Shown here piece after piece: positions 31,535-46,033 of a stretch of 47,112 bases of DNA. The notes under the pieces were generated by a model that was not told the origin of the DNA, ran no database searches, and saw nothing but the letters and a program-made list of their open reading frames with translations. The stretch lies in sequence record NC_024210.1; one strand, written 5' to 3'. The position numbers were made by a program, and so were the translations under genes. Source of the DNA: Escherichia phage e4/1c. Within the stretch, counting starts at the first letter, position 1; every line of letters starts with the position of its first letter.

Positions 31535-32008
31535 TTACTCTTTAGCTTTTCGTGCTGCTTCGTTTGCTGCTTTAATTTTTCGCCATGAGCGACACTCTGG
31601 TTTGGTGGCTAATTCAGCATCAGTAACCACGCGTAGCATGTGTCGCTTTTTGCAACGAAGAGTCAGAGGCTTACCGTTGCCGTCAAACTGAAGGTCTGGC
31701 CGGCAGAATGTAGCCCTAAATCCTTCACCAGTTCGCTTATATCGATTATGTGCAAGTTGAGCGCCGCGGGCTGAAATCATTCCTCGAGTGCACCACTCTT
31801 CCACGGTCTGGCGAGTAACCTTTAACTGCTTAGCGAGATTTGCCTTACTGCCATAGAAGTCCAATACAATCTCAAGTCGAGCCCTTAGTCCAGCCCTTAC
31901 TTCATCCTTTAATACATAGTACCCTGAAGGTCGTTTGCGTGGCTTTTTATCTTCCTTTCGGATGGTTCCGTTATTGCCGTTAAGAGTACGTTTATCGACT
32001 TGATTCAT
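31535..32008 (-). CDS. HTH DNA-binding protein, candidate transcriptional regulator
   Basis: 157 aa from ATG 32008 (RBS GAGGTGA); HTH-like SKANLAKQLKVTRQTVEEW; basic; divergent from helicase gene. Confidence 0.5.
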   Translation of the reverse strand: MNQVDKRTLNGNNGTIRKEDKKPRKRPSGYYVLKDEVRAGLRARLEIVLDFYGSKANLAKQLKVTRQTVEEWCTRGMISARGAQLAHNRYKRTGEGFRATFCRPDLQFDGNGKPLTLRCKKRHMLRVVTDAELATKPECRSWRKIKAANEAARKAKE

Positions 32009-32022: not shown

Positions 32023-32065
32023 TAGCACTTTTTGTTAAACATTAGTTTCATTGGTTGTTATTATA
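32023..32065 (+). promoter_or_regulatory. palindrome-type promoter unit upstream of helicase
   Basis: TAGCACTTTTTGTTA 32023-32037, about 21 bp, TATTAT, then AATCGAACGAAC leader; palindrome lies 15 bp upstream of divergent HTH gene start. Confidence 0.5.
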
Positions 32066-32101: not shown

Positions 32102-34045
32102 ATGACTATGCGCTTGAAAACAATACAGAAACAGATTGAAGAAATGGGTGAAGACAAGATCAAAGAGATTCAAACTAAATTCACCTCATATAATGGCATG
32201 ATTCCTTATAGCTATCAGTGTGTAATGTATAATGAGATTGCCAAGCGTATTGGTAAATATAAGCACCCGTTCATCGCAATGGCTTCAGTATCAGCTGGTA
32301 AAACTCTAGTTTTTGCCATGGTCGCTAAGCGCTGCTCTGAGATTGGTTTGCCAATGCTTCTACTTGCTCGTCAGGCTGAGCTTGTTAGTCAGAATGCTTC
32401 TGAGATTTCAGATTATGGTGTGCCTAACTCCGTTTACTGCTCAGGTCTTGGAATTAAGTCATCTTATTTTCCTGTAATTGTAGGCTCTGAGGGTACAGTT
32501 GTTGGTGGCCTTGATAAGGCGCTTGGTGACTTCTGTCCTGCTGTTGTGGCAATAGATGAGTGTCATCATCTGGATGATCAAGATATTGCAGAAGCAATAG
32601 ACAATAATGAGACATCACAGCAAGCTAGAGATAAAGGCCGGAGCCAGTACACGATAATTCTCCTCACGTTAATGGAGAGATGCCGCGCTAAGTATGGGCG
32701 TGAACTTAGGATATTTGGCCTGACTGGCTCTCCTTTCCGCGGAACAACACCAATTGTTGTGGAGAACCTTAAGGAGCTTGGGTTCTGGCGTGAAACGGCG
32801 ACTAATATTGATACCAACTATCTGGTTGAGTTCGGCTCTGTTGTACCCACAAATTTCGGGTCTACTGATGGTGTTGGCTATGATCTGTCTGAGTTTGACA
32901 CTTCAGCAGATGATGGTGTGCAGGACTTCACGAAATCTCAGCTAGAGGCAATGGAGAAGAAGATTCAGCAGTCAGGCACAATGACAGCAGAGATAATGAA
33001 GAAGGTATGGTTGGCAGCAAAAGATCGTAACGGCGTTCTTGTAACTTGCGCAGGCGAGCGACACTGCAAGGAGGCCGCAAGCTACCTTCCAGAGGGTGAG
33101 ACTTACTGCATAATTACTGGCAAAACTGGAGAGAAGCAGCGCAAGGAGCTACTGGATAAGTGCTTCTCTGGGGATATTAAATTTTGTTTTCAAGTTCAAG
33201 CTCTGACTACTGGTGTGTCAGTTCCACCATGGGATACTAGTGTAATTCTTCGCAAGATTGGTAGCCTCACGCTCCTGGTTCAGCTACTTGGTCGAGGAAT
33301 GCGTAAGCTTAAGAAGCTCCATGAAGATAAAGGAATGGTCAAGAATGACCACCTTGTATTGGATTTTGCTGGAACTATGGATTCAATGGCATCCCTTTAC
33401 TTCAACCCAATACTTGAACAGGCCCAGTATCAGCTACGCAAAAGTAATGGTAAAGAGATGAAGCAGTGCCCTGTTTGCGGCACTGAAAATAGCTTCTACG
33501 CTCGTCGCTGTATGCGTGTTGATGAGAACAATAAAAGGTGCGAATATTTCTGGGTTAGCCGCACATGTGAAGACCAAAAAGACCCGAGGACAGGAAAGGT
33601 TACCGTGAAAGGCTGTGGAGTTCAGAATGACGTTGCAGCTAAGATTTGTAGAGGTTGTGATTGCACCCTTCTAGATCCGAATCTTAAGTTAAGCGGAAAA
33701 CATTACAGAAAAAATGATTGGTTTGACGTTGTGGATTTCAAGGTTGGACTAACAAAGAACCAATCAGGAATCATCTACAACTACGTCCTTGATGATGGCA
33801 TGGGTGGGACATTCAAAGCTCATGAGGTTTTCTTTGTAGAGTCTGACCATCGAGTATGTAAAACGCTCTGGTTGAACAATGGAATTAAAGGTCACGTAGT
33901 CGACATGAACGCTAAGCGATATATGGCTGCATATCGCAATGCTCGCAAGATTATGGAGTATGCGCAGTACATCCATGCTCCTAAGAGGGTAACTCACCGC
34001 AAGACCGCTAAAGGTGGCGATAATATTGCTAATAAGGAGTTCTAA
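32102..34045 (+). CDS. superfamily II DNA helicase with C-terminal zinc ribbon
   Basis: 647 aa; Walker A SVSAGKTLVF, DECH box VVAIDECHHL, motif VI QLLGRGMRK, C-terminal CPVCG ... CRGCDC. Confidence 0.8.
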   Translation: MTMRLKTIQKQIEEMGEDKIKEIQTKFTSYNGMIPYSYQCVMYNEIAKRIGKYKHPFIAMASVSAGKTLVFAMVAKRCSEIGLPMLLLARQAELVSQNASEISDYGVPNSVYCSGLGIKSSYFPVIVGSEGTVVGGLDKALGDFCPAVVAIDECHHLDDQDIAEAIDNNETSQQARDKGRSQYTIILLTLMERCRAKYGRELRIFGLTGSPFRGTTPIVVENLKELGFWRETATNIDTNYLVEFGSVVPTNFGSTDGVGYDLSEFDTSADDGVQDFTKSQLEAMEKKIQQSGTMTAEIMKKVWLAAKDRNGVLVTCAGERHCKEAASYLPEGETYCIITGKTGEKQRKELLDKCFSGDIKFCFQVQALTTGVSVPPWDTSVILRKIGSLTLLVQLLGRGMRKLKKLHEDKGMVKNDHLVLDFAGTMDSMASLYFNPILEQAQYQLRKSNGKEMKQCPVCGTENSFYARRCMRVDENNKRCEYFWVSRTCEDQKDPRTGKVTVKGCGVQNDVAAKICRGCDCTLLDPNLKLSGKHYRKNDWFDVVDFKVGLTKNQSGIIYNYVLDDGMGGTFKAHEVFFVESDHRVCKTLWLNNGIKGHVVDMNAKRYMAAYRNARKIMEYAQYIHAPKRVTHRKTAKGGDNIANKEF

Positions 34046-34434
34046 TGGTTAAGGTTTTTCACGACAAAACAAGCACGGACAAGGCTAAAGAGGTTGTTCA
34101 CCAAATAAATTCAATAGCTTGGGTTCGCCACAACCATCCAGAGATATTTGCTTTTCACGTGAAGAATGAAGGTCTCAAGTCTATCGGCACAGCAATGAAG
34201 GACAAGCAGGAGGGAGTAATTAAGGGTGTATCAGATATTCTACTGATTGGACCAAATGGCTTTGCCGCAATAGAGCTTAAGCGAGCAATAAAATCAGATA
34301 GCAAGGTTTCAAAGGAGCAAAAGGAGTTCCTGGAAAAGGTATCAGAAACAGGAGGTTACGCGGCAATCTGTTATGGGTTTGAAATGTTTAAGTTGGCAAT
34401 TGCAGATTATCTATCAAATAGCACGAATTGCTAA
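34045..34434 (+). CDS. VRR-NUC domain nuclease
   Basis: 129 aa; GVSDILLIGPNGFAAIELKRA ... KEQKEF pattern typical of VRR-NUC PD-(D/E)xK nucleases. Confidence 0.6.
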   Translation: MVKVFHDKTSTDKAKEVVHQINSIAWVRHNHPEIFAFHVKNEGLKSIGTAMKDKQEGVIKGVSDILLIGPNGFAAIELKRAIKSDSKVSKEQKEFLEKVSETGGYAAICYGFEMFKLAIADYLSNSTNC

Positions 34435-34461
34435 AGAGATTTCGCAAGGATGCGATATAGT
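34419..34461 (+). promoter_or_regulatory. palindrome-type promoter unit
   Basis: TAGCACGAATTGCTA, 22 bp, TATAGT, then TTCATCGAAACGAAGAGAGAG leader. Confidence 0.5.
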
Positions 34462-34492
34462 TACTTCATCGAAACGAAGAGAGAGAAACAAA

Positions 34493-34687
34493 ATGACTAC
34501 TATCTACACTGAAAAGCTGTACAAGTCACGCAAAACTGGTTATGAATATGAATTAGCAATCACCCCTGAGGGTTATATTCTTGATGATGGAGACGGTTAC
34601 TCATTCGAAGTTAGCCCAACATACAAAGATGATTTAGAGACTGTTAAAAACGCATTCGGCGAAAAATTTGATGAGGTATCAGAATGA
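34493..34687 (+). CDS. hypothetical protein (64 aa)
   Basis: ATG 34493 downstream of conserved leader. Confidence 0.45.
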   Translation: MTTIYTEKLYKSRKTGYEYELAITPEGYILDDGDGYSFEVSPTYKDDLETVKNAFGEKFDEVSE

Positions 34688-34911
34688 TGGCTATCTTTAC
34701 TTTTGAGAATCAATGGGAAGTATTCCAGACGATGGTTGTTGAGGAGCTCAGCAAAGCTAAGTATAACAAGGGTGATGCGTGGTATTTGGCTGCATCACTT
34801 GATATGAGTTTCGAGGAAGACTACCTGAACACCGATATAGAAACATGGCGTGAACGAATGATTGCTGATATCGAAGAAATGAAGAAAGATTGCCCGGAGG
34901 ATTTTTCATGA
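34684..34911 (+). CDS. hypothetical acidic protein (75 aa)
   Basis: ATGA start/stop overlap with upstream gene. Confidence 0.45.
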   Translation: MMAIFTFENQWEVFQTMVVEELSKAKYNKGDAWYLAASLDMSFEEDYLNTDIETWRERMIADIEEMKKDCPEDFS

Positions 34912-35108
34912 TTACTGCGACTTGCGTAATGACGAACGGCTCATTCACCCTGCTCAATGAGTATGAATTCAAACTTGACCCGATTAATGACCAGGTTGAA
35001 ATAGTTAGCGATGAAGGATTTGCATGGAAGTTACATAATGAATTTGATGGTTACTACGGGTGTAATGATGCGAAAGGTAAGCATGTAAGTTTTCTTGTTT
35101 ATGAGTAA
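34908..35108 (+). CDS. hypothetical protein (66 aa)
   Basis: ATGA overlap; start inferred at second Met of ORF 34890..35108. Confidence 0.4.
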   Translation: MITATCVMTNGSFTLLNEYEFKLDPINDQVEIVSDEGFAWKLHNEFDGYYGCNDAKGKHVSFLVYE

Positions 35109-35109
35109 A

Positions 35110-35152
35110 TAGCACTTTTTGTTAAAACTAAAATACAAGGATGGATTATATT
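35110..35152 (+). promoter_or_regulatory. palindrome-type promoter unit
   Basis: TAGCACTTTTTGTTA, 22 bp, TATATT. Confidence 0.5.
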
Positions 35153-35182
35153 AATTACATCAGCAAATGAGAGGGTTAAGAG

Positions 35183-35308
35183 ATGAAAATTGTAGACAAA
35201 GAGATGTTAGAGATTGCTCAGTCTTTCGCAAATGACGCAGTTAAGACTGGATCTGAATATTGCTGGATGTGCGCTCGAGAATATTTAAAAATGGCTTACG
35301 GCCTATGA
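35183..35308 (+). CDS. hypothetical small protein (41 aa)
   Basis: RBS GAGGG; below ORF-track cut-off; ATGA-coupled to next gene. Confidence 0.3.
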   Translation: MKIVDKEMLEIAQSFANDAVKTGSEYCWMCAREYLKMAYGL

Positions 35309-35544
35309 TAGTTGAAACCGGACGCGCCGCTGTATGGGCGCATTGTGGAGAGGCGGGATTGCAGGATGACATCAAGATGATAGGTAAATACTTTGATATT
35401 GATGACATATCTGTAGTTTTCAATGGGAAGTTTAGTTATATGAACCAGCGGCCACGCAAGTATGTAAGAGTTCCAGCAACGCCTAGCCTCGCAATGTATC
35501 GTGAGGAAGGTAAGAAGATATTTAAGAAAGGTGCGAAGAAATGA
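35305..35544 (+). CDS. hypothetical protein (79 aa)
   Basis: in-frame part of ORF 35260..35544 starting at coupled ATG. Confidence 0.4.
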   Translation: MIVETGRAAVWAHCGEAGLQDDIKMIGKYFDIDDISVVFNGKFSYMNQRPRKYVRVPATPSLAMYREEGKKIFKKGAKK

Positions 35545-35798
35545 ATTTACCTGGTCTAGATTTTGATGAGAGTAAGTATCAGGTTGTGTTTTTTGGTGAG
35601 AAGCCTTATCGGAAGATTCCTTTCTCTGAGTGGATTCCTCCGGACTACCTCGATGTACTGGTGCAAATTGAGATTGGTAAGGCTGAGTTGATGTACTACT
35701 CACCTGGCTGCAATATGATGATGCCTAGTGAGTATTCTCCAGCAATTGCTGCGCTTGAAACTGAGTTTCTTGATTACTGGCTAAAAGAAGTTAAATAG
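35541..35798 (+). CDS. hypothetical protein (85 aa)
   Basis: ATGA overlap; stop TAG is first triplet of next palindrome. Confidence 0.45.
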   Translation: MNLPGLDFDESKYQVVFFGEKPYRKIPFSEWIPPDYLDVLVQIEIGKAELMYYSPGCNMMMPSEYSPAIAALETEFLDYWLKEVK

Positions 35799-35838
35799 CA
35801 CTTTTTGTTAAAACATATCGCCAGGGATGGCTTATAGT
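35796..35838 (+). promoter_or_regulatory. palindrome-type promoter unit
   Basis: TAGCACTTTTTGTTA, 22 bp, TATAGT, then TCATCGAAACGAGAGG. Confidence 0.5.
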
Positions 35839-35866
35839 GTGTTCATCGAAACGAGAGGCGGCTCAG

Positions 35867-35935
35867 ATGAAAACATTACTACCATTGCTGGCAGTGCCAG
35901 TAACCTTTATAATCATGTACTTCATAACCTGCTAA
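35867..35935 (+). CDS. possible 22-aa hydrophobic leader peptide (uORF)
   Basis: ATG 8 nt after conserved ACGAGAGG RBS; MKTLLPLLAVPVTFIIMYFITC; ends 14 nt before main ORF start. Confidence 0.25.
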   Translation: MKTLLPLLAVPVTFIIMYFITC

Positions 35936-35949
35936 TAGGAAAATATAGA

Positions 35950-37077
35950 ATGGCTATCGCTAAAATCACTAACGAACAACTTAAAGAAGAACTGGCAAAC
36001 GGTATGACTAACAAAGCAATCGCAGAGAAGTACGGCATGAACATTCGTAACGTAGAACTGCGCCGGAGCAAGCTGTCAAAATCTGGCGAAGGCCACGGAA
36101 ACGAAGGCATAAAGAAGCTAGTTCCGGATGGATACATGGTTAAAGGCACTTCAACCATGATTGATGCAGAAGGTAACGAGAAGATTCGTTGGGTTAAGAC
36201 TAGTGTTGATAATGAACGCCTTGAAGAGATTATTACTCAGGCACGCGAAGCATTTTGCTCAGAACTTCCTAAGGCCGAGCTAGTTAAAAATGAAAATGTT
36301 AACTTTGATGAGACATTAACTCTTTACCCTGTATTTGACATTCATATTGGTATGATGGCCCACGCTCACGAAGCTGGCGAGAACTACGACACGGCAACAG
36401 CTGAAAAATTGATGAACTCATACTTTGATTACTCAATCAGCAAGGCTCAAAATTCAGAGAAGGCGGTATTACTGATTGGCGGTGACTTCCTTCACTCTGA
36501 TGGCCTTGACGCTGTTACACCAGCAAGTAATCACGTACTTGATCAGGATAGTCGATTTGCTAAGTTGGTTTACGTTGCAATTCGATCTCTTCGAGCTACA
36601 GTAACTAAAATGCTTATGAAGCATAAAGAGGTTGAGATTCAGGTTATTGAAGGCAACCACGACCAGGCATCAATGATTTGGCTGCGCGCTGCAATGGCTG
36701 CATTCTATGACAATGAGCCACGAGTCCATGTTGATGTAAGTCCTGCAATCATGCACAAGACTCGATATGGATCAACTTTGCTTGGTTATACACATGGCCA
36801 CACCATGAAGAAAGCTGAGGGTCGACTCGCTGCCATGGCTAATGATTATCGCAAGGACTTCGGCGAGTGTGAGTTCGTTTACTGCCACTCAGGTCACTTC
36901 CATCATGCAACAGTAACCGAGTGCACGCTTGGTATTGACGAAGTTCACCCGGCATTAGCAAGCAAAGATGCATACGCAGCACGAGGCGGATGGAGAAGTT
37001 ACCGTCAGGCAGCAGTGATTGTTTACCACAAAGAATTTGGCGAGATTGGTCGATTCATTTACCGTCCGGGGATGTAA
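35950..37077 (+). CDS. HTH-domain plus calcineurin-like metallophosphoesterase
   Basis: N-terminal GMTNKAIAEKYGMNIRNVELRRSKL (HTH-like); phosphoesterase motifs VFDIHIGMMAH, GGDFLHSDG, EGNHDQ, GYTHGH, CHSGHFHH; start at ATG 35950 because ORF-track start 35827 would lie inside the promoter. Confidence 0.65.
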   Translation: MAIAKITNEQLKEELANGMTNKAIAEKYGMNIRNVELRRSKLSKSGEGHGNEGIKKLVPDGYMVKGTSTMIDAEGNEKIRWVKTSVDNERLEEIITQAREAFCSELPKAELVKNENVNFDETLTLYPVFDIHIGMMAHAHEAGENYDTATAEKLMNSYFDYSISKAQNSEKAVLLIGGDFLHSDGLDAVTPASNHVLDQDSRFAKLVYVAIRSLRATVTKMLMKHKEVEIQVIEGNHDQASMIWLRAAMAAFYDNEPRVHVDVSPAIMHKTRYGSTLLGYTHGHTMKKAEGRLAAMANDYRKDFGECEFVYCHSGHFHHATVTECTLGIDEVHPALASKDAYAARGGWRSYRQAAVIVYHKEFGEIGRFIYRPGM

Positions 37078-37081
37078 TGAA

Positions 37082-37267
37082 ATGTTAAAAGAAATACTAA
37101 GAATAATCCTTGGGGACAAGAGAGAATGCAAAAAATGCAGATTCGAGTATATAGATGACACAGACGAAGGTTCATTCTATGAGTGCAAGATTTGCGGAAA
37201 TGAAGTTTTGCTTGGTAAAAGTGGCGTTGTTAAGCAATCTAGAGTAACCGACTGCGATTATGACTAA
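37082..37267 (+). CDS. zinc-ribbon protein (61 aa)
   Basis: CKKC ... CKIC. Confidence 0.45.
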   Translation: MLKEILRIILGDKRECKKCRFEYIDDTDEGSFYECKICGNEVLLGKSGVVKQSRVTDCDYD

Positions 37268-37268
37268 A

Positions 37269-37311
37269 TAGCACTAATTGCCAAAACACAAATCAAAAGA
37301 TGGGGTATATT
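37269..37311 (+). promoter_or_regulatory. palindrome-type promoter unit
   Basis: TAGCACTAATTGCCA, 22 bp, TATATT, then CCATCAAAACAAAACGAGAGGA. Confidence 0.5.
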
Positions 37312-37344
37312 TACTCCATCAAAACAAAACGAGAGGATACAAAG

Positions 37345-37530
37345 ATGGCTAAGTTCACACAATCAGATGCACAGATTGAAGTTAAAGATGTTGGTTTTGG
37401 TAAGACATTTCGGATTGCACAGGCTTACGGAACTAGCGAAGAAGATGTAAAGGTTGACACTATTAACCTTACTGCTAAGAATGCACGTGAGATCGCTTAT
37501 GCAATCCTTGCGGCACTTGGAGGGCGTTAA
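37345..37530 (+). CDS. hypothetical protein (61 aa)
   Basis: ATG 37345 after conserved leader. Confidence 0.45.
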   Translation: MAKFTQSDAQIEVKDVGFGKTFRIAQAYGTSEEDVKVDTINLTAKNAREIAYAILAALGGR

Positions 37531-37718
37531 TGTTGCAAACAATTAAAGCTGATATGGTAAAGGTGGGTGATGAGGTTTTGTTCTCAAATTGCCAACGGCA
37601 AAAAGTTAAGGCCACAAGCCTTGAGTATTACCCTAGCTGTACGTTCGTAATGATTAAGACCATGGGCGGTAACTGCTTCCCAATTAATGTAAACACACTT
37701 ATTTGCGTAAACCGTTAA
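37530..37718 (+). CDS. hypothetical protein (62 aa)
   Basis: TAATG overlap with upstream gene. Confidence 0.4.
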   Translation: MLQTIKADMVKVGDEVLFSNCQRQKVKATSLEYYPSCTFVMIKTMGGNCFPINVNTLICVNR

Positions 37719-37730
37719 GAGATTATCAAA

Positions 37731-37904
37731 ATGACTAAATTATTCTGCGTTAGCAACAAATCAAAATCACTGCCTTTCACTGTAAACAACCCTTACAGTG
37801 GTGAGTACCAGGGGGATGGTAATTACAAGATTTATGGCGATGACATGACTTGGATCTTCGCCCCGATTGATGGAGAATTGGTGGAATTCATTATCGCAGA
37901 CTAA
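37731..37904 (+). CDS. hypothetical protein (57 aa)
   Basis: not in ORF track; ATG 37731, followed by terminator. Confidence 0.3.
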   Translation: MTKLFCVSNKSKSLPFTVNNPYSGEYQGDGNYKIYGDDMTWIFAPIDGELVEFIIAD

Positions 37905-37924
37905 CTTATAAGAAACATCAACTT

Positions 37925-37952
37925 GAAAACAGGCGGCCTTTAAGGCTGCCTT
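37925..37952 (+). terminator. rho-independent terminator
   Basis: ggcggcc-tttaa-ggctgcc plus T8. Confidence 0.65.
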
Positions 37953-38019
37953 TTTTTCGTTTATGTCAAAGTTTAATATCTGGTATTATTTAATCAAATC
38001 AACTTAAAGAGGCCGCAAC

Positions 38020-38235
38020 ATGAAGCATTTCTATGACGCAGCCGCCTTGTCCGGTAGCGGAGTAGCTATGGGCGGCGGCTTATCTGACAATACAATCATC
38101 GGCATTATTGGCTTAATCGTAGCCGTGTGCTTTGGTATCTTTGGAGCATGGCTGCGATGGAGGGACAGTAAGGCGCTACATAAAGCACTTGAGGATGGAG
38201 ATATCCGTGAGGCAATGAGAATCAGGAGTAAGTGA
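38020..38235 (+). CDS. holin
   Basis: 71 aa; hydrophobic segment IIGIIGLIVAVCFGIFGAWL, charged C-terminus; RBS AAAGAGG; first gene of lysis cassette. Confidence 0.7.
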   Translation: MKHFYDAAALSGSGVAMGGGLSDNTIIGIIGLIVAVCFGIFGAWLRWRDSKALHKALEDGDIREAMRIRSK

Positions 38236-38717
38236 TGAGTATAAAGAATAAAGTTATTGGCGGGGCCTTAGGCTCCGCTATTGCTATAGCTGTACCATTC
38301 CTGAACAAGTATGAGGGCGTTGAGTATAGGCCATACAAAGATGTAGCTGGGGTGTGGACTATTTGCGCAGGCATTACTGGCCCTGACGTTATTCGTGGCA
38401 AGGTTTACACTCAGCGAGAGTGTGATGCACTCCTTATGAAGCACCTGTCAATTCATCGCTCCGCTGTTGATAAAGCCCTGAAGGTTGATGTTCCAGTTAG
38501 CACCAGGGCGGCGCTGTACAGTTTTTCATTTAATGTTGGGACCAATGCAATGCGCAACTCAACTGTTATCAGACTCATGAATCGCGGCGATATTCGTGGT
38601 GGATGTGAGGCGCTATCAATGTGGAATAAAATTAGCGTTGGTGGCAAGAAGGTTGTGAGCAAAGGCCTGGTTAACAGGCGAAACGCGGAGATTAGGCTAT
38701 GCGTGTCGGAATTATAA
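38235..38717 (+). CDS. SAR endolysin (GH24 lysozyme-like)
   Basis: N-terminal weakly hydrophobic GGALGSAIAIAVPF (signal-arrest-release type) followed by YEGVEYRPYKDVAGVWTICAGITG with Glu/Asp/Thr catalytic pattern of T4-type lysozymes. Confidence 0.75.
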   Translation: MSIKNKVIGGALGSAIAIAVPFLNKYEGVEYRPYKDVAGVWTICAGITGPDVIRGKVYTQRECDALLMKHLSIHRSAVDKALKVDVPVSTRAALYSFSFNVGTNAMRNSTVIRLMNRGDIRGGCEALSMWNKISVGGKKVVSKGLVNRRNAEIRLCVSEL

Positions 38718-39103
38718 TTATTGCAATCACATTGCTGACCGGTTGCTCTGTTATGTCAGCTATCTCTGATTTATTACCGAGTAAGGATGGCATTGAAGCA
38801 ACAGCGCAGGTTGGTGAGTCTAACCAGAAGACGGGCGTTGGATTATCTAGCCAGATAGATAAATCAAGTTCAGTAGAAAGCGATATGCGCAACTCAACTA
38901 ACAGGGACGTAGATTCATCAAGCCAAAAAAAGACCGCTGCTACTGGTCTCTCAGCAGGCACAATAACAGCTGAAAAGATTGAAATTCACAGCACTGAAAA
39001 CTCTGGGGTTGACTCATTGGTCTGGGGTATTCTTGCAGGGTTAGTTTCAGGCTTGCTAACTTACTTCGCTTTAAGATTTGCAGGGAACAAAAAAGGAGCC
39101 TAA
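38699..39103 (+). CDS. unimolecular spanin (u-spanin, T1 gp11-like)
   Basis: N-terminal lipobox LLTGC plus single C-terminal TMD SLVWGILAGLVSGLLTYFAL. Confidence 0.7.
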   Translation: MRVGIIIIAITLLTGCSVMSAISDLLPSKDGIEATAQVGESNQKTGVGLSSQIDKSSSVESDMRNSTNRDVDSSSQKKTAATGLSAGTITAEKIEIHSTENSGVDSLVWGILAGLVSGLLTYFALRFAGNKKGA

Positions 39104-39118
39104 TGGCTCCTTTCTTTT
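39088..39118. terminator. bidirectional terminator between lysis cassette and minus-strand block
   Basis: aggagcc-taat-ggctcct flanked by A-run and T-run. Confidence 0.65.
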
Positions 39119-39452
39119 ATGCGAACAGTTGGTCGTCTGTCATTTCTTTTATGGTCATCATCTCATTAGTGTACTTATCGCTCTCACCTTCAAGGCATCT
39201 GAAGCTAAATTCGAAAGGTCGCTTCGTGCTTCCTTTGCTCCAGTAACTGCCATTAACTCCATCGATGTAACCTTCAGTCATGCATCTTGCCAGAAACTCC
39301 TTTGACGCAGATGATGCAAAGTAACGCGTATTAACTCCAGCTGCCTTAGCCATTCTTTCACATTCTTTGTGGCGGTAAATGAATGCCGCCAGGTGCTGCC
39401 TGTTAAACCTTTCGTAGCTCTCGCAGAACTTGAACACATCAAGGATGAACAT
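39117..39452 (-). CDS. hypothetical protein (111 aa), last gene of ATPase operon
   Basis: 5 nt downstream of ATPase gene stop on the same strand. Confidence 0.5.
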   Translation of the reverse strand: MFILDVFKFCESYERFNRQHLAAFIYRHKECERMAKAAGVNTRYFASSASKEFLARCMTEGYIDGVNGSYWSKGSTKRPFEFSFRCLEGESDKYTNEMMTIKEMTDDQLFA

Positions 39453-39456
39453 TTAA

Positions 39457-41040
39457 TTACCCCAGCAGCCGTGGATTGATATATACCTTGTCACCAATCA
39501 GGCAGGTATAGTTTTTCTCATCAAGCATCGGCAGTAAGTGGTCTTTAATTTTAGCCATAACACCAGCCTGTGACTCGAAAGGTCGAACCTTACGCGCAGC
39601 TTCATAAAGTGAACGCAAACCCACAACTCCTTTACTGTTCTTGCCTTGCTTGATAAGGATATCAATTAACTTGTTCATCTCAGCGTTATCGCCAGCATGA
39701 CCAGCTGCGTTAGCTGAAGATAAGTAAGTCTTACTAAGTTCTTCAAACATCAACAAAGCCTCTTGCATGGTTTCTAGTTCAATCTCCCTGGACTTCTGCG
39801 GACTACCACCATTCTCGTTAAACCAGTTACGGATAGTATGCAGAACCGAAGCGAGGCGAATCACTTGCTTGTCCATTTTACCTAACGCGCCACGAAGCAT
39901 TGTATGTGAATACTTCCCACCATCAGCAAGGTGTGGCTCCATTTCCTGTCGAGCACGGTTAAGGTACTTCATTGCTGAGTTACTAACAGTCAACTTCACA
40001 TCTTGCTCACTCATAATTTCATGAACAAGACGGAAGTAATCAGCCTTCAACGCTCCGTCAATCGGCTCATATGTTGACTCGCCATTATCATCGACGAAAA
40101 CACGCTCACCAAGGAATGACTTTTCACGCACAAGCAAGAAACGTTCGGATACACCAATACCGCGAGCACCAGCATTCATGATTGCGACTATTGTTTCATC
40201 CTGCGCAATTACAGAAATACACCCCATAGCAATAAAGCTCATGTTGTTCTCTGCGTTCGCACGCGCGATAGATACGCTACCAGCATCCCAGGCCTTCAGA
40301 ACAAGCTCGCTGTTAGTTTTCTTCGAGCCATCACCGTAAGTCATACCAAGAAGTGAGTTAACACTTGTCGCTTCATCAGAAATCACGGAGAAGTTACCCT
40401 GGCGGTTGTTGATTCGCGCAAGACCTTCCGGTGTAGTATCAGATACCGGAAACACAATGTCGCACAGCTTTTCTAACTTCTCTTCCAACTCCTCTTTCTC
40501 TTCGAATAATCCAGCCATCTCAGATGGTGACTTCTCTTGCTTCATTTCTTTTGCCAGGGCTGACAATTTAGCCATAATCTTCTTACGGTCACGCTTTCGA
40601 ATCTCATTTAGTCGCTCGGTCTCAGAAATCATTGGTGCGAGTGCAAGTGAGTTAATTGCTGATTTACCAGTTGATGGTGGCTGACTGGTGACTACATACA
40701 GTGATGTTGGTTGTTGAGTTCCGTGATACTCAACCGTAAAGCGACCTAACATAGCTGCCGAGACGCAACCAAGGAAGTGCATATAAGCAGATGATTCAGG
40801 AAACTGAACAGAACGAGCAGTATTGCTTGATAGTTTGCCAACTACATCATAGTCGTTACCCAGCGAGATAACAGGATACTTGTCGCCAGTAGAATCAATC
40901 TCAACCGGAGCTTTCCAGAATGATGCGCTCTGGCGATAACCGTTCGCATTAATAGCAACACGTAAAGGAGTTAATCCATCCTGAGCGGCAACAGCCATTA
41001 CTTGTTCAACAGTCAATTTGTCATCATTAAAATCAAACAT
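39457..41040 (-). CDS. P-loop NTPase with shared N- and C-terminal modules (paralog of 44156..44704)
   Basis: Walker A VTSQPPSTGKSA, Walker B FSVISDEA; N-terminal 42 aa about 70 percent identical to ORF 44156..44704; start ATG 41040 (MFDF) or 41046. Confidence 0.65.
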   Translation of the reverse strand: MFDFNDDKLTVEQVMAVAAQDGLTPLRVAINANGYRQSASFWKAPVEIDSTGDKYPVISLGNDYDVVGKLSSNTARSVQFPESSAYMHFLGCVSAAMLGRFTVEYHGTQQPTSLYVVTSQPPSTGKSAINSLALAPMISETERLNEIRKRDRKKIMAKLSALAKEMKQEKSPSEMAGLFEEKEELEEKLEKLCDIVFPVSDTTPEGLARINNRQGNFSVISDEATSVNSLLGMTYGDGSKKTNSELVLKAWDAGSVSIARANAENNMSFIAMGCISVIAQDETIVAIMNAGARGIGVSERFLLVREKSFLGERVFVDDNGESTYEPIDGALKADYFRLVHEIMSEQDVKLTVSNSAMKYLNRARQEMEPHLADGGKYSHTMLRGALGKMDKQVIRLASVLHTIRNWFNENGGSPQKSREIELETMQEALLMFEELSKTYLSSANAAGHAGDNAEMNKLIDILIKQGKNSKGVVGLRSLYEAARKVRPFESQAGVMAKIKDHLLPMLDEKNYTCLIGDKVYINPRLLG

Positions 41041-41079
41041 TATCATCTCTCTCTAAATGCCCCGAAGGGGCTTGATTAT

Positions 41080-41259
41080 TTACTTGATACGAACTTCAAT
41101 CATCTGACCTTTATGAGGAAGATACAGCTTTGCGCGACCTCTAATCATTACGGTGATGATATTCTCCTTAAGGTCAACGTGAAGTACTTTGCGGAACAGA
41201 GGCCCCATTTTTACCATCATGCCAGGTTTGATGTTTTCGATAGTAGTCATGATATCCAT
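41080..41259 (-). CDS. hypothetical small protein (59 aa), first gene of ATPase operon
   Basis: not in ORF track; MDIMTTIENIKPGMMVKMGPLFRK...; hairpin separates it from ATPase gene. Confidence 0.35.
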   Translation of the reverse strand: MDIMTTIENIKPGMMVKMGPLFRKVLHVDLKENIITVMIRGRAKLYLPHKGQMIEVRIK

Positions 41260-41297
41260 TTTTTAGCCCTTTTAATGTATTTCGTTTCGATGAAGAG

Positions 41298-41341
41298 AAT
41301 ATATCAATTTTTGTTGTTAAGTTCTTTAGCAAAAAGTGCTA
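41298..41341 (-). promoter_or_regulatory. palindrome-type promoter unit for ATPase operon
   Basis: minus-strand TAGCACTTTTTGCTA, 23 bp, TATATT, TTCATCGAAACGA. Confidence 0.5.
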
Positions 41342-41458
41342 TTAAAGACCAACCAGACATTTGCCAACTACAACAGCGATTGCGCCCATGAAGCCAAAGA
41401 AACCAAACTTAATTACTTGTTCCATTACCGCATCAACTGCTTTAGAGATGTTTTTCAT
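41342..41458 (-). CDS. small membrane protein (38 aa)
   Basis: MKNISKAVDAVMEQVIKFGFFGFMGAIAVVVGKCLVGL; start chosen at ATG 41458 with RBS AAGGTGA. Confidence 0.4.
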   Translation of the reverse strand: MKNISKAVDAVMEQVIKFGFFGFMGAIAVVVGKCLVGL

Positions 41459-41495
41459 TTTGTTCACCTTAGTGTTTGTCTTCTTGATGGAAACA

Positions 41496-41539
41496 AATAT
41501 ACCCGCCGAAGCGGGTAGTGTCATTAGCAAAAAGTGCTA
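41496..41539 (-). promoter_or_regulatory. palindrome-type promoter unit
   Basis: minus-strand TAGCACTTTTTGCTA, 23 bp containing hairpin cccgc-ttcg-gcggg, TATATT. Confidence 0.45.
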
Positions 41540-41540
41540 T

Positions 41541-41894
41541 TTATGAATATGAGCTTTCGAACTTGTAGAGGCCATAACCAACATCAAAGCCAACTTCTTC
41601 ATCACGCGTCAACTGCCAGCCCTCGCCGTCTTCATCATAAATATACCCAGCGTTACGACCAAGTGATGCAGTCATTGATACCTGGTAACGCTTACCCTTA
41701 CTGAAACTCTTCTTGAGTGGTGACTTGTGGTTCACGAAAGTGCAAAGCAAAGTCTTGGTCTTGACGTAACGACCCCGGCCAGTGAGATTTTGCCATTTAC
41801 CATGAATCTTGATTTGCTCAATACCATCTTTAACGCGAGCTTTAAACAGATTGTTATCTGAGCTGATCCAGTTTTTAGTGATAGTGGTAGCCAT
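41541..41894 (-). CDS. hypothetical protein (117 aa)
   Basis: RBS AAGGAAAA; second gene of a two-gene unit. Confidence 0.5.
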   Translation of the reverse strand: MATTITKNWISSDNNLFKARVKDGIEQIKIHGKWQNLTGRGRYVKTKTLLCTFVNHKSPLKKSFSKGKRYQVSMTASLGRNAGYIYDEDGEGWQLTRDEEVGFDVGYGLYKFESSYS

Positions 41895-41919
41895 TACTAT
41901 TTTCCTTTTTGGTTTGTTA

Positions 41920-42222
41920 TTAGTTAGCGTTATGACGTTCGATATAGTCGCGGATTGTTTCGCCTACGCTTTTAGCGGCACCAAAAGTGCCCTTTGCGTG
42001 GCGTGAGTCGCGGTACGTCTGGAAGAATTTACGAGCGATGTTTGCGAACATTGAACCAGTCACGCGAGCATCACCAAAATTTGTTTCGATAGCGTTGCTG
42101 ATGCCATCCTTGAACTCATTTTCAGTCATGAACATCTCTGCCATGCCAGCAGTCTCGAAAAGATTAGCTAATTCATTCATGTTGTTATGGTCGGCGGCTG
42201 TAAACAGGTTCATGTTAATCAT
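41920..42222 (-). CDS. hypothetical protein (100 aa)
   Basis: RBS AAGGAA after conserved leader. Confidence 0.5.
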   Translation of the reverse strand: MINMNLFTAADHNNMNELANLFETAGMAEMFMTENEFKDGISNAIETNFGDARVTGSMFANIARKFFQTYRDSRHAKGTFGAAKSVGETIRDYIERHNAN

Positions 42223-42256
42223 CTTAGTGATTCCTTAGTTTCGTTTCGATGAGATG

Positions 42257-42299
42257 AATATACAGTAAAAGCCCCGAAGGGCTTTAGCGATTCGTGCTA
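42257..42299 (-). promoter_or_regulatory. palindrome-type promoter unit
   Basis: minus-strand TAGCACGAATCGCTA, 22 bp containing hairpin, TATATT, TCATCGAAACGAAAC. Confidence 0.5.
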
Positions 42300-42449
42300 T
42301 TTCTTTGCTGCTTTTGCAATTGCCTTCTGGACGATATTGAAGCTCTCAATCAAATCTTCTTTGAAGTAGTCACCAACAGGCCAACCCTTACCGCTGTACT
42401 TGGCTATGGTTTCTAGATCGTAATAGTTCAAGTCAGATGGCTTTAGCAT
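42297..42449 (-). CDS. hypothetical small protein (50 aa)
   Basis: not in ORF track; start adjacent to upstream stop (TAAATG); stop TAG is first triplet of palindrome. Confidence 0.3.
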   Translation of the reverse strand: MLKPSDLNYYDLETIAKYSGKGWPVGDYFKEDLIESFNIVQKAIAKAAKK

Positions 42450-42689
42450 TTACTTCACCTCATCAAAAGTTGCAACACCAGGGATAAACATTCCAACCTT
42501 CCAGCCAGAGATAGCAATCCATCCAGAATCGTGCTTGTGCGGTCTCTCGGCGCCATTAATTACCCACTCGTTCGGGATTGTCTTACCGTTAATTATTAGA
42601 GGCTCAGCGTCGTATATAGAGCCTTTTACGAATGGTGTTAAAATCTTCTTGTCGGTGCTTTGGATGACGTTAGTGCAGCTAATCTTCAT
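42450..42689 (-). CDS. hypothetical protein (79 aa)
   Basis: ATGA overlap with upstream gene. Confidence 0.45.
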   Translation of the reverse strand: MKISCTNVIQSTDKKILTPFVKGSIYDAEPLIINGKTIPNEWVINGAERPHKHDSGWIAISGWKVGMFIPGVATFDEVK

Positions 42690-42916
42690 ACCAACACCTC
42701 GAACTCTTCATCAGAAATCTCACAAAGTTCATGTTTATAGATTGCAATAATATCATCGAAAACCACATCTTTTTTAGACTGAATCTGATAGGTTCCAGTG
42801 ATCATCTTGAAAGCTACAGCAATCTCACCTTCTTCATAACCCATCTCGCGCAAGCTTGTTGAGTCTTCATCATACTTATAGTCAACGTTAGTTAATTTAA
42901 TTTTTACCTGTTCCAT
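42686..42916 (-). CDS. hypothetical acidic protein (76 aa)
   Basis: first gene of minus-strand block; RBS GAGGAGAT. Confidence 0.5.
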   Translation of the reverse strand: MEQVKIKLTNVDYKYDEDSTSLREMGYEEGEIAVAFKMITGTYQIQSKKDVVFDDIIAIYKHELCEISDEEFEVLV

Positions 42917-42943
42917 GTCTATCTCCTCGCTGTTGATGTAATT

Positions 42944-42987
42944 AATATACCCAATCAGGACTGAATGTTCATTAGCAAAAAGTGCTA
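42944..42987 (-). promoter_or_regulatory. palindrome-type promoter unit (first of minus-strand block)
   Basis: minus-strand TAGCACTTTTTGCTA, 23 bp, TATATT. Confidence 0.5.
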
Positions 42988-43011
42988 TTCGTTCGATTTA
43001 TGGATTGTTGC

Positions 43012-43105
43012 GGATATTGCAATGATTAGATTCACCTTTGCGCACATAGCAATATTGCATCTATTGCAATGATTTTCTGTACTGTTGCGAAAATGGCAAT
43101 GATTG
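43012..43105. repeat. cluster of short palindromic iteron-like sites (ATTGCAATGATT family)
   Basis: TATTGCAATGATT at about 43015 and 43063, GCAATATTGC at about 43049, GGCAATGATT at about 43094. Confidence 0.6.
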
Positions 43106-43179
43106 ATGGATTGATGGAATGAAGGAGGACGCATCAACTGGTTGGTTGGTTTTCTCGCTCGCTCGGAGATAATCATTTG

Positions 43180-43330
43180 TATACGCGTAGTCCGCTGTCT
43201 ACCGATTGTCGACCGTATCCAGATTTACATTTGATACGCCTTGATACAATCCATATACATTAAAACATCCTTATATATAAAGGACTTAGACTATTATTAT
43301 TATTATATATAGTATTATGTATATATGGCG
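43180..43330. repeat. regulatory repeat region B (homologous to 23316-23470)
   Basis: TATACGCGTA plus 60-bp near-identical AT-rich segment shared with region A. Confidence 0.7.
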
Positions 43331-43381
43331 TATCCTTTGTACGCCACTATATAGGTGGGTTTGCTTAAATTTCTATTTTTA

Positions 43382-43398
43382 TTCCTACATTGTAGGAA
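43382..43398. promoter_or_regulatory. perfect 17-bp palindrome TTCCTACATTGTAGGAA with adjacent half-site
   Basis: perfect inverted repeat; half-site TTGTAGGAA repeated at about 43409. Confidence 0.5.
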
Positions 43399-43545
43399 TG
43401 GGACTACGTTGTAGGAAAATATAGGGTGTATCGCCAGAAATGCACTAATAATTTGGATACGGCGAGTACGCCATGACTACATCCAGCAATGAAGCGGCCT
43501 ACGGATGAGAAAATGTAATTATTTATCGAATACATAAAAAATACC

Positions 43546-43574
43546 TTGATATACACGTATCTACTTGCTATAGT
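43546..43574 (+). promoter_or_regulatory. sigma70-type early promoter (TTGATA, 17 bp, TATAGT)
   Basis: canonical spacing; followed by CCATCGAAACG leader and gene at 43614. Confidence 0.6.
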
Positions 43575-43613
43575 CACTCCATCGAAACGCGATAAAAAAC
43601 GAGAGGAATTAAA

Positions 43614-44156
43614 ATGAGCAAGTCAACACTTGGTGAAGTAATTCGATTCATGGCTAAAAAAGCACTCCAGTCAGAGAGCAAGGAGTGCAGAGTTCCAGTT
43701 CGTTCTATATTTAAAGAGGTGCGCGGAGAGGATTACCCAGAGGTTGACGTTAATGAGAAGGATGGATTAAAGAAAACAATTAAAAGTCGATCAATGACTG
43801 AGTTAAAAAACTCATACATTTACAATACAGTTTCACGCATGACTGAGCTGAGAGAAGCGAATGTTAGAGCTAGATATAAATTCATCTGGCTTGATGAAGA
43901 CAAAGAGGAGACAACCCCAGCTGCGTATGACGGTGACGGCGCAGATAAATACTTGGTAATCTATATTGAGAATGGCTCAGTCGAACCCAGGGCAAAGCAA
44001 AAGGAGAAGGCAAAGCAGGAGCAGGCCGCAATCGATAGGTTTAAGGCTCGACTTCTCAAGCTATCACCTAACGTGCTGGAGTTTGAAGGCGATGAGCTGA
44101 CTGGCGCAGTTAAGGCTATCCGCATGTATCAAGAGATGATCAAGGAGTTTAACTAA
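43614..44156 (+). CDS. hypothetical early protein (180 aa)
   Basis: RBS GAGAGGA; first gene after promoter. Confidence 0.5.
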   Translation: MSKSTLGEVIRFMAKKALQSESKECRVPVRSIFKEVRGEDYPEVDVNEKDGLKKTIKSRSMTELKNSYIYNTVSRMTELREANVRARYKFIWLDEDKEETTPAAYDGDGADKYLVIYIENGSVEPRAKQKEKAKQEQAAIDRFKARLLKLSPNVLEFEGDELTGAVKAIRMYQEMIKEFN

Positions 44157-44704
44157 TGTTTGATTTCGACGAAGATAAGTTAACTGATGACCAGGTGATG
44201 GAAGTCGCCAGGCAAGATAACCTGCCGCCACTTCGTGTGGCAATCAATGCTAATGGATACCGCCAATCATTCAAGTTCTGGCCGAGCGCCGAAGAGATGC
44301 TGTGCGTCAAGTTGAGCTACAAATACGGCGTCGTAGTGCATAAAATTAAGCACTTATGCGGCAATACAGGAATGCTTTACGTGAGCCAGCTATACCGGCA
44401 GATCAGAGAGGTCCAGCCATTCGTTGGTCGTGATGACATATTCAACGACCTTAGTAATATCATTCTGCCGTCACTCCAGGACGCCGGAATCACATGCCGG
44501 ATTGGCGATCAGGTGTTTGCGCATCCGTACCTGGTGGAAATGGATGAACGAGACGTGTACAGATGGTGCAGTCAGTACCTATCCGACGCACCAAGCTCAC
44601 ACTACGTGCGACCGCAGACAACAATCCATGGCTATGATGCCGATGAGGTGGAGAAGGCCATCCAGTTCTACCGGAAAGCGAAAGCTCTCCTGAATGGTGA
44701 ATAG
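44156..44704 (+). CDS. short paralog of P-loop NTPase gene (N- and C-terminal modules only, no ATPase core)
   Basis: MFDFDEDKLTDDQVMEVARQDNLPPLRVAINANGYRQS matches N-terminus of ORF 39457..41040; C-terminal LY..R.V.PF...LP.L...TC.IGD.V..P also shared. Confidence 0.6.
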   Translation: MFDFDEDKLTDDQVMEVARQDNLPPLRVAINANGYRQSFKFWPSAEEMLCVKLSYKYGVVVHKIKHLCGNTGMLYVSQLYRQIREVQPFVGRDDIFNDLSNIILPSLQDAGITCRIGDQVFAHPYLVEMDERDVYRWCSQYLSDAPSSHYVRPQTTIHGYDADEVEKAIQFYRKAKALLNGE

Positions 44705-44744
44705 CACGAATTGATAAACAAAAAACAGGGTATTCAGCTATGAT
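44702..44744 (+). promoter_or_regulatory. palindrome-type promoter unit
   Basis: TAGCACGAATTGATA starting on stop codon TAG, 22 bp, TATGAT, then CTATCAACCAAACGAGAGGA. Confidence 0.5.
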
Positions 44745-44775
44745 TACCCTATCAACCAAACGAGAGGAATAAAAT

Positions 44776-45009
44776 ATGATCGTAATTAACCTGTCTGAAA
44801 GGCAAGCAAAAGAGATTAAAGCGGTAATGATGCACTGCCTTAACCGAAAGCTATTTAGCTCCTCAGAATCGCTTACAGAGGTCGTAGAGCAGATTCGCAA
44901 TCAAGAGTTTGAAGATGTTCTGCCGTGGGAAGAGGATTTAGCCTGGCTTGAGTACGAGAAGATTTGCACGGTTCTTTCAGGTTGCCAGCTGGCTAGCCAA
45001 TACAAGTGA
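44776..45009 (+). CDS. hypothetical protein (77 aa)
   Basis: ATG after conserved leader. Confidence 0.45.
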   Translation: MIVINLSERQAKEIKAVMMHCLNRKLFSSSESLTEVVEQIRNQEFEDVLPWEEDLAWLEYEKICTVLSGCQLASQYK

Positions 45010-45127
45010 CCATCTACGAACACAAATTTAGTAGCAGCGGCATACCAATGTTGCTGCACTACGTAAGCGAAAAATACGCAATATTGATGCAGAAGACGCA
45101 TGGCGGGACAATAGCGAGGATTGAGAT

Positions 45128-45283
45128 ATGAATGAATTTAAAATTGAAGATATTATTCTTGATGATGCTGTTTATTATCACGAGAATGATGGCTTTGATA
45201 CTGAATGTATGGCTGATGATGGCATTGCTTTGATTATCGAGCGAGATAAGTTCGGCGAGATCGTTCAGTGGAGTGAGCAATAA
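45128..45283 (+). CDS. small highly acidic protein (51 aa)
   Basis: not in ORF track; RBS GAGGA; 15 of 51 residues Asp/Glu. Confidence 0.35.
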   Translation: MNEFKIEDIILDDAVYYHENDGFDTECMADDGIALIIERDKFGEIVQWSEQ

Positions 45284-45603
45284 TGAGCAAATACGACAAA
45301 GAGATTATTGGCTTGGATGGAACCAAGACGACAGTTGATGTATATCGTGTTATCGCAGCATTCGGCGTAACCGACCCAGCGTTACAGCACGCCATCAAAA
45401 AGGTACTGTGCAGCGGCATTCGAACGCGACACAAGGGTTACACCACTGACATCAATGAGGCCATTGTGTCGCTTCAAAAGGCTGTGGAATTTCATGGGCA
45501 AAGAGGCGCGCATGTTCAGGAGATTATTGATAAGTATCGCGATGGCTCTAAGATTCAGAAGGTAGTAAGCAATAGGAATTACCTAGATAGCTGGAGCAAA
45601 TAG
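45283..45603 (+). CDS. hypothetical protein (106 aa)
   Basis: TAATG overlap; stop TAG is first triplet of next palindrome. Confidence 0.45.
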   Translation: MSKYDKEIIGLDGTKTTVDVYRVIAAFGVTDPALQHAIKKVLCSGIRTRHKGYTTDINEAIVSLQKAVEFHGQRGAHVQEIIDKYRDGSKIQKVVSNRNYLDSWSK

Positions 45604-45643
45604 CACGAATTGCTAAACATAAATCGCAAGGATGCGTTACTAT
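45601..45643 (+). promoter_or_regulatory. palindrome-type promoter unit
   Basis: TAGCACGAATTGCTA, 22 bp, TACTAT, then TTATCGAAATGAGACGAGGA. Confidence 0.5.
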
Positions 45644-46031: not shown

Positions 46032-46033
46032 CC

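Follow-up and report, generated by a model that had tools for sequence, protein, structure and literature searches.

The re-annotation of phage TLS described a 21-nt direct repeat, aaATAGCACnnnTTGnTAAAA, in 18 intergenic copies that run along the direction of transcription ~76 nt upstream of start codons and fall into A, T and G spacer subtypes, and it stated that T1, Rtp and Rogue1 carry similar repeats (German, DeGiulio, Ramsey, Kropinski, Misra 2024, PMC11447400). The parts of that paper available to us remark that T1-like genomes have very few recognizable sigma-70 promoters, suggest a stoperator-like, enhancer or UP element role for the repeat and list its function as an open question; they make no mention of stop-codon overlap, of a -10-like box with a stem-loop, of cassettes, of homing or of gene gain and loss (PMC11447400). 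Here we analyze this repeat in the Rogunavirus-like Escherichia phage e4/1c (NC_024210.1; 47,112 nt, the whole of which we call the window), where a first-pass annotation had noticed a palindrome, TAGCA-N5-TGCTA, that abuts or overlaps the stop codons of upstream genes. The palindrome is the core of the oriented direct repeat published for T1-like phages, and the window copies share with the TLS repeat its sequence, orientation, A/T/G subtypes and distance to the start codon. The repeat itself is already published; new here are the stop-codon geometry, the composite structure and the link to indels.

Lambdoid morons, described by Hendrix and colleagues, are extra genes with their own promoter that sit precisely between two conserved genes and are present in some relatives and absent from others; classical morons have their own terminator and a host-type promoter. 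The free-standing homing endonuclease genes of T-even phages (seg/mob) also lie between conserved genes, are expressed from their own phage promoters and show presence/absence polymorphism. In T4-type phages, the elements termed PeSLs have been described as an upstream stop codon in an AT-rich stretch followed by a promoter, a stem-loop that in many cases lies between or over the promoter boxes, and a Shine-Dalgarno (SD) sequence with start codon; they border variable open reading frames (ORFs) and indels, and recombination between copies and the formation of mini-circles have been shown (Arbiol et al. 2010, PMC2839356; Comeau et al. 2014, PMC4122927).

A 12-kb region of the window matches Rogunavirus genomes (Drexlerviridae, T1-like) at ~90% identity over 65-89% of its length. 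We compared the window with eight whole genomes (AHP42, JK06, AHS24, AKS96, C119, phiKP26, Rogue1 and phiEB49), adding partial loci of T1, Sf12, Sd1 and other phages; a scan of IMG/VR with a 416-aa protein gave 13 loci only, essentially GenBank phages, and whole GenBank relatives were used instead. Genes in the window were called with strand blocks taken into account (85 genes). A literature search for the motif under other names returned the TLS paper as its sole match, and the promoters annotated in the AHP42 genome paper are sigma-70-like only.

Stop codons at the repeat

All 12 repeat copies in the window that have a co-directional upstream gene carry the stop codon of that gene within -4 to +13 of the repeat, counted from the first T of TAGCAC: TAG at offset 0 in six cases, TAA at -4 in three, TAA at +13 in two and TAA at -3 in one (Table 1). 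Nine TAG stops occur in the genome, six of them the repeat's own and the remaining three in doubtful ORFs of 35-57 aa; TAG thus ends 6 of 12 repeat-junction genes versus 3 of 73 others (Fisher exact p = 1.4e-4). Frame 0 of the repeat reads aaA-TAG and frame 1 reads aAT-AGC-ACn-nnT-TGn-TAA, each ending in a stop; frame 2 (ATA-GCA-C..) is open, and the stops observed there are TAA at -4, which use the repeat's own 5' A's. The repeat offers TAG in one frame and TAA in another, its A-rich 5' flank takes up TAA in the third, and any ORF that reaches the element is therefore closed there.

Genes that enter the repeat in frame 1 gain repeat-encoded tails, N-S-T-N-C in the VRR-NUC gene and N-S-T-N-S in the RecE-like gene. 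These two unrelated proteins, the VRR-NUC protein and the RecE-like exonuclease, end nearly alike (34420-34434 and 26032-26046), their last codons being the repeat. The AHP42 homologue of the gene at 44156..44704 stops with TAA at +13 (43796-43811) instead of TAG at 0, since the two genomes differ by 2 nt immediately ahead of the repeat (gaaTAG versus gaataTAG); this shift is a natural demonstration of the backstop effect.

The consensus of 152 unique sites, aAATAGCAC(t/g)wwTTG(c/t)TAAA, agrees with the repeat of the TLS paper, and its most conserved blocks are ATAGCAC and TAAAA. We found 12 matches to the oriented core TAGCAC-N5-GYTAA in the window versus 0.07 expected, in addition to degenerate copies; a relaxed pattern gave 17-24 copies per relative versus 1.3 in shuffles. 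Plain TAGCA was not enriched in the window (95 found versus 123 expected), and the palindrome with up to two mismatches was uninformative (35 found versus 28 expected). The element is strictly oriented with transcription, and promoter-type copies are all co-oriented with the downstream gene. The word palindrome, as the first-pass annotation used it, overstates the symmetry of the whole: pairing is confined to the 5-bp arms, and of the 152 unique sites 104 have C at position 13 and 44 have T.

Most of the contacts that had been listed from the letters stood. The five cases read as the TAG of TAGCA(C) serving as a stop (first T at 2176, 35796, 44702 and 45601 on the plus strand and at 42299 on the minus strand) agree with the ORF table and the motif listing, and the stop placed inside the right arm at 34419 (TGC-TAA) was confirmed. 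A spacing of 1 nt, claimed for four copies, holds for those at 35110, 37269 and 41539, and has to be corrected to 0 nt for the one at 41341. Two cases had been missed, the TAG at 42987 and the TAA at +13 of the degenerate 26031 copy.

The overlap is kept at homologous loci in all eight relatives, where abutment is found at homologous and non-homologous junctions alike (108 of 152 relaxed sites), and it is also present in T1 and in other Drexlerviridae genera. Clustering the 120 nt upstream of promoter-type copies yielded 57 unrelated families; among the 55 distinct flanks that were scored, a stop fell at -7 to +13 in 39 under a longest-ORF rule, which gives a lower bound, and in 48 under a nearest-ORF rule, which gives an upper bound. 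The junction upstream of the 37269 repeat has five alternative contents: none in phiEB49; a 61-aa ORF in the window; a repeat-like sequence, terminator and 65-aa ORF in Rogue1 and AHS24; a repeat, terminator and HNH gene in AHP42, AKS96 and C119, with a remnant in phiKP26; and ~1 kb in JK06. Each filler stops at -7 to 0 of the repeat, indicating that the abutment has been re-established repeatedly.

Table 1. Repeat copies and associated features in the window. Positions are those of the plus strand; the last column gives the extent of elements with a spacer stem-loop.
Feature	Position	Strand	Stop codon and context	Element with spacer stem-loop
Core TAGCACGAATTGCTA	2176..2190	+	TAG 2176-2178 = stop of terL (610..2178); heads the promoter-like element of the HNH cassette	2176-2240
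Window-specific cassette, repeat/promoter and HNH_3 gene	2178..2717	+	Between terL stop and resident terminator/portal ribosome-binding site (RBS)	
Core upstream of 22982..23227 (-)	23297..23311	-	No nearby co-directional upstream gene	
Degenerate copy CAGCACGAATAGCTA	26031..26046	+	RecE-like gene 25078..26046 reads through; TAA 26044-26046 (+13)	
Atypical copy	30493..30507	+	No -10-like box; no co-directional upstream gene	
Core upstream of helicase gene 32102..34045	32023..32037	+	Divergent from helix-turn-helix (HTH) gene 31535..32008; no co-directional upstream gene	
Core	34419..34434	+	VRR-NUC gene 34045..34434 reads through; TAA 34432-34434 (+13)	34419-34480
Stop, A and core TAGCACTTTTTGTTA (35110-35124)	35106..35124	+	TAA 35106-35108 (-4)	
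Core	35796..35810	+	TAG 35796-35798 = stop of 35541..35798	35796-35860
61-aa filler ORF	37082..37267	+	Fills the junction just upstream of the 37269 repeat, which has five alternative contents	
Stop, A and core TAGCACTAATTGCCA (37269-37283)	37265..37283	+	TAA 37265-37267 (-4)	
Core, first T 41341	41327..41344	-	TAA 41344-41342, directly adjacent (-3) = stop of small ORF 41342..41458/41530	
Core, first T 41539	41525..41543	-	TAA 41543-41541, then one A before the core (-4)	41539-41470
Core	42285..42299	-	TAG 42299-42297 = stop of 42297..42449	42299-42230
Core	42973..42987	-	TAG 42987-42985 = stop of 42985..43176	
Core TAGCACGAATTGATA	44702..44716	+	TAG 44702-44704 = stop of 44156..44704	
Core	45601..45615	+	TAG 45601-45603 = stop of 45283..45603	45601-45670

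The atypical copy at 30493 has the primase-gene terminator on one side and, on the other, the start of the tail-fibre gene, which is on the minus strand; its oriented form points into the terminator. This arrangement is kept in phiEB49 (12449) and in a further locus, L007 (2902), and homology to all relatives breaks at 30487/30488, beside the copy.

Anatomy of the composite element

The repeat forms the upstream end of a composite element of ~75 nt, laid out as aAATAGCAC-N5-G(C/T)TAAA, 22-23 nt of spacer, TATAnT, ..tCATCGAAACGA.., an RBS/SD sequence and the start codon; in the window 66-84 nt separate the first T from the start codon, versus ~76 nt in TLS. A -10-like hexamer, TAYDNT, lies 21-23 nt downstream in 81% of 189 exact cores from 21 Drexlerviridae loci, versus 4.2% at random positions, and a conserved start region, tcAtc.aaac (tCATCGAAAC), follows 6-7 nt after the -10-like box. 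Transcripts would be expected to start at the A of CATCGAAAC, ~7 nt after TATAnT.

The spacer folds. Across 117 unique sequences its mean folding energy was -4.4 kcal/mol versus -1.7 kcal/mol in shuffles (Wilcoxon p = 2.5e-10), and the stems are unrelated in sequence and covarying, as in tcgca-agga-tgcga, gcca-ggga-tggc, gctca-tgga-tgagc and acccgc-ttcg-gcgggt. The smallest have 4-5 bp closed by aGGA loops, and the largest are complete GC-rich terminators. In most copies the stem-loop lies 7-10 nt past the repeat, and its 3' arm finishes at the TA of the -10 box. In the minus-strand 41539 element the spacer contains a terminator-like, GC-rich hairpin (41517-41500), with TATATT directly after its 3' arm; in the 42299 element, also on the minus strand, the spacer hairpin is agccc-ttcg-gggct and a T run comes after it.

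From this anatomy we infer a promoter function for the element. Three more specific identities were considered and set aside. As a canonical sigma-70 promoter, with TTGnTA as its -35, the element would need a spacer of 22-23 nt, and it was rejected on that ground; an alternative -35 (TAAACA-like, 17 nt) was rejected because it reaches 9-10 of 12 at four copies only. Nut-like boxA/boxB elements were dropped, since the loops are generic tetraloops (TTCG, GAAA, AGGA) and the stems are unrelated.

Divergent from the copy at 32023, the minus-strand gene 31535-32008 encodes a 157-aa protein named "transcriptional regulator" in relatives, with weak matches to Cro/CI/YdaS-type HTH families, all below Pfam cut-offs. 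This protein is a candidate binder of the repeat.

Gene gain and loss beside the repeat

The first-pass annotation had proposed to check whether relatives lack the HNH cassette behind terL exactly at the boundaries of the palindrome and the terminator. The cassette is absent from six of the eight relatives (AHP42, Rogue1, AKS96, C119, phiKP26 and AHS24); its left breakpoint splits the terL stop as TA|G, and its right one lies just before the resident terminator. The empty site of these six reads ...gttaagTAAtcATGATAAACT-terminator-RBS-ATG (in short form ...TAAtcATGATAAACT-terminator), and the filled site of the window reads ...gttaagTAGCACGAATTGCTAAA-promoter-HNH...terminator; the insert runs from the third base of the terL stop to the cassette's own stop, so that terL ends in TAA when the site is empty and in TAG when it is filled. 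JK06 (...TAGCACGAATTgGTAAA) and phiEB49 (...TAGCACGAATTaCTAAA) have the same repeat and the same terminator here with a different, non-HNH gene.

The identity of the inserted gene is given by Pfam HNH_3 (7e-22 for 2242-2547) and is also backed by tblastn. Its ORF is split, with a first part at 2242-2550 and the C-terminal part in another frame to ~2717; homologues such as phiEB49 gp59 are continuous, and the split gene (2242-2717) may be a pseudogene, may have a frameshift, or may result from a sequencing error close to an A-run. Its promoter part best matches the element at 15106 of AHS24 (88% over 43 nt) and the window element at 45601 (83% over 46 nt); the promoter of the nearest HNH homologue is less similar.

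To count gene gain and loss across the nine genomes, we took as a clean indel any stretch of 100 bp or more that faces a gap of 40 or less, and collected 46 unique events from an all-against-all search. A boundary lay within 15 nt of the first T in 19 events (most within 5 nt); in 7 it fell where the promoter/leader ends on its 3' side (+45 to +80), and 20 events were not at a repeat. With 25 of 85 window genes adjoining an element, the null is 29%, and the 26 of 46 indels that border the element exceed it (p = 8.8e-5); the first-T boundaries taken alone are marginal (19/46, p = 0.05). In 13 of the 19 first-T indels the repeat forms the 5' end of the inserted unit, and the other 6 lie just upstream of a resident repeat. 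Inserts headed by a repeat include phiEB49 gp37, gp40, gp45, gp57 and gp59, the window HNH gene, AHP42 HNH_22 and HNH_46, and Rogue1_0034; ~8 of ~13 HNH insertions begin with the repeat. Three cassettes (AHP42 HNH_46, Rogue1_0058 and the phiKP26 remnant) are flanked by two repeat copies where the "empty" phiEB49 site has one, with a junction overlap of 9-21 nt. The 20 indels away from repeats include translationally coupled small genes and HNH genes that follow terminators, among them the window gene at 26791-27294.

The proposal that gene-plus-promoter cassettes are exchanged with the palindrome as junction, and that gain and loss breakpoints coincide with it, therefore holds in part: the 26 bordering indels bear it out, and the 20 elsewhere do not. 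Identity change-points between the window and the eight relatives fell at repeat elements in ~5 of ~40 cases, not clearly above the share of gene junctions that these elements make up; as they are not concentrated there, we rejected the strong form of the idea that the repeat is a general recombination hot spot. The "empty" sites of the late region have no repeat, indicating that insertions there were not repeat-to-repeat events.

A second window-specific HNH_3 gene (26783-27294, 167 aa; ORF 26791-27294; Pfam 1.7e-9 for 26791-27291) lies between the recombinase and SSB genes, directly after a terminator and without a repeat; C119 has a different endonuclease gene at this junction. Another junction element also recurs, a terminator followed by TTTTTTATTGGAGAAAnnnnATG (window 2690-2716, Rogue1 L002 ~19600-19655, phiEB49 L021 ~25795-25850). 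This element is found ahead of the portal gene and of several late genes, and inserted cassettes have it as their right-hand border.

Explanations and known systems

We think it probable that the pattern is passive, with dense packing and built-in stops explaining the overlap, and promoter-led accessory cassettes, often HNH, explaining the coincidence with gain and loss. The window is 93.2% coding, and 28 of its 78 co-directional junctions overlap, with a median gap of 13 nt. With almost no spare DNA, each upstream ORF would run to the next functional element, and the repeat would act as a passive backstop through the TAG in ATAGCAC (frame 0), the TAA in TAAAA (frame 1) and an A-rich 5' flank that turns a preceding T into TAA (frame 2). 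Stop overlap is then an expected consequence of packing. The first-pass annotation had offered strong selection for compactness as one cause; the compactness is real, and strong selection is not needed, as the built-in stops suffice. Accessory genes, many of them free-standing HNH genes, would commonly travel as units of repeat/promoter plus gene, the 5' end of the unit being the first bases of TAGCAC, joined directly to the resident stop codon; other genes would be gained or lost immediately upstream of a resident repeat. The simplest route would be insertion of the moron or homing type and exchange via flanking homology, followed by loss of the spacer, to which recombination between repeat copies might occasionally contribute.

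Several results weigh against this account. Abutting families divide 21:7:11 by phase, so that the TAG frame is modestly over-represented (chi-square p ~0.02) where pure packing predicts equal use. Stops lie 0-1 nt from the repeat or overlap it, as against ~3-31 nt from the annotated terminators of AHP42, and a force besides general compaction may therefore be at work. Any selection that acts on so few spacer nucleotides would be expected to be very weak. The promoter part of the account meets negatives of its own: we could recognize no -35 hexamer (no consensus at 16-18 nt), a sigma-70 consensus scan of 32000-47112 gave no excess (30 found versus 32.5 expected in shuffles), and our literature search found neither transcript 5' ends or transcription start sites nor binding data for T1-like phages.

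A rival account, which we regard as possible and rather doubtful, is shuffling of the PeSL type, in which homologous recombination between repeats, or between the ~45-nt promoter elements, excises, swaps or inserts repeat-to-repeat units, possibly catalyzed by the phage's own RecE-like/Erf-type recombination genes. The gene of each unit would then end exactly where the next repeat begins, and it would be this structure of the unit, more than packing by itself, that both creates and maintains the overlap. The cassettes flanked by two copies, set against the one-copy phiEB49 site, are what it would leave behind, and it would also fit the five alleles upstream of the 37269 repeat, the two different cargos that a shared repeat leads at the terL stop, and the resemblance of the window HNH promoter to the AHS24 15106 and window 45601 elements. 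The excess of indels touching the element and the TAG-frame excess speak for it as well, as does an architecture of promoter and stem-loop with the upstream stop inside the element, which agrees with the published description of PeSLs. Yet the late empty sites offer no repeat as a partner, the 20 indels at repeat-free junctions fall outside its reach, change-points are not concentrated at repeats, homology between copies is often only ~17-20 nt, and the first-T boundaries by themselves are marginal. Moreover, with zero spacer a whole-gene indel beside a repeat must end at the repeat's edge under any mechanism, so the exactness of these boundaries is not independent evidence. We are similarly tentative about the repeat as a dedicated junction module that closes an ORF in any frame, restarts transcription, and docks or recombines promoter-led cassettes shuffled among loci and among co-infecting Drexlerviridae by the phage's own recombination system. 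If repeat-mediated shuffling were true, the repeat would be a second, independent case of the PeSL principle, evolved in a siphovirus family, and the published question on its function would have an answer.

Selection might instead act on the position of the stop itself: a terminating ribosome could control folding of the stem-loop or terminator, limit Rho access or modulate occupancy of the repeat. Stops that are tighter on the repeat than on terminators, an abutment re-made behind many unrelated genes and a stem-loop 7-10 nt past the repeat in most copies are what such coupling would produce. A stop range of -7 to +13 would, however, place the ribosome very differently relative to the hairpin, the 32023 and 23311 copies have the same anatomy without an upstream gene, and the stop jumps from 0 to +13 between close relatives, all of which makes functional coupling improbable. 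That the overlap is due to chance or ORF calling is very hard to credit. Spurious open frames would indeed seem to stop at a motif bearing TAG and TAA, and the nearest-ORF rule can over-assign, its 48 of 55 flanks shrinking to 39 once the longest ORF is taken; yet terL, the VRR-NUC gene and the RecE-like gene are real genes, with homologues annotated to the same ends in AHP42, Rogue1 and others, all 12 junctions abut, and the skew in TAG usage is far from random expectation.

These results have practical consequences. They give an annotation rule for T1-like phages, in which a gene ends at -7 to +13 from ATAGCAC and the next starts ~75 nt downstream. They also point to natural, precisely bounded insertion points, immediately behind a stop codon or immediately ahead of the repeat's first T, that could serve in engineering these therapeutic-candidate phages. 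To the open question of the TLS paper (PMC11447400) they bring an anatomy in which the repeat has stops of its own, a covarying stem-loop and, at a constant 22-23 nt, a -10-like box follow it, a conserved start region comes next, and the whole is associated with gain and loss.

Set beside morons, the cassettes described here differ in bearing the phage family's own repeat element and in usually reusing the resident terminator. They are closer to seg/mob genes in that HNH genes lie between conserved genes, are polymorphic (absent from 6/8 relatives at terL/portal) and are led by the phage's own promoter type; unlike that comparison set, the terL/portal HNH gene is split by a frameshift and is a candidate homing gene, and non-HNH genes use the same cassette form. 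The likeness to PeSLs extends further. As there, the element begins at the upstream stop (12/12 junctions, -4 to +13) and ends at SD and start codon, and a stem-loop lies within or next to the promoter-like part. Where PeSLs have consensus sigma-70 -35 and -10 boxes, the present element has a -10-like TATAnT only, with the 21-nt upstream repeat in place of the -35; phage family and sequence are unrelated, and many indels lie away from repeats. Measured by association with indels, 26 of 46 touch the element and 3 are flanked by it on both sides, 20 do not touch it, and change-points are not enriched. On this comparison, the element of T1-like phages is best regarded as an analogue of the PeSLs, not a member of them.

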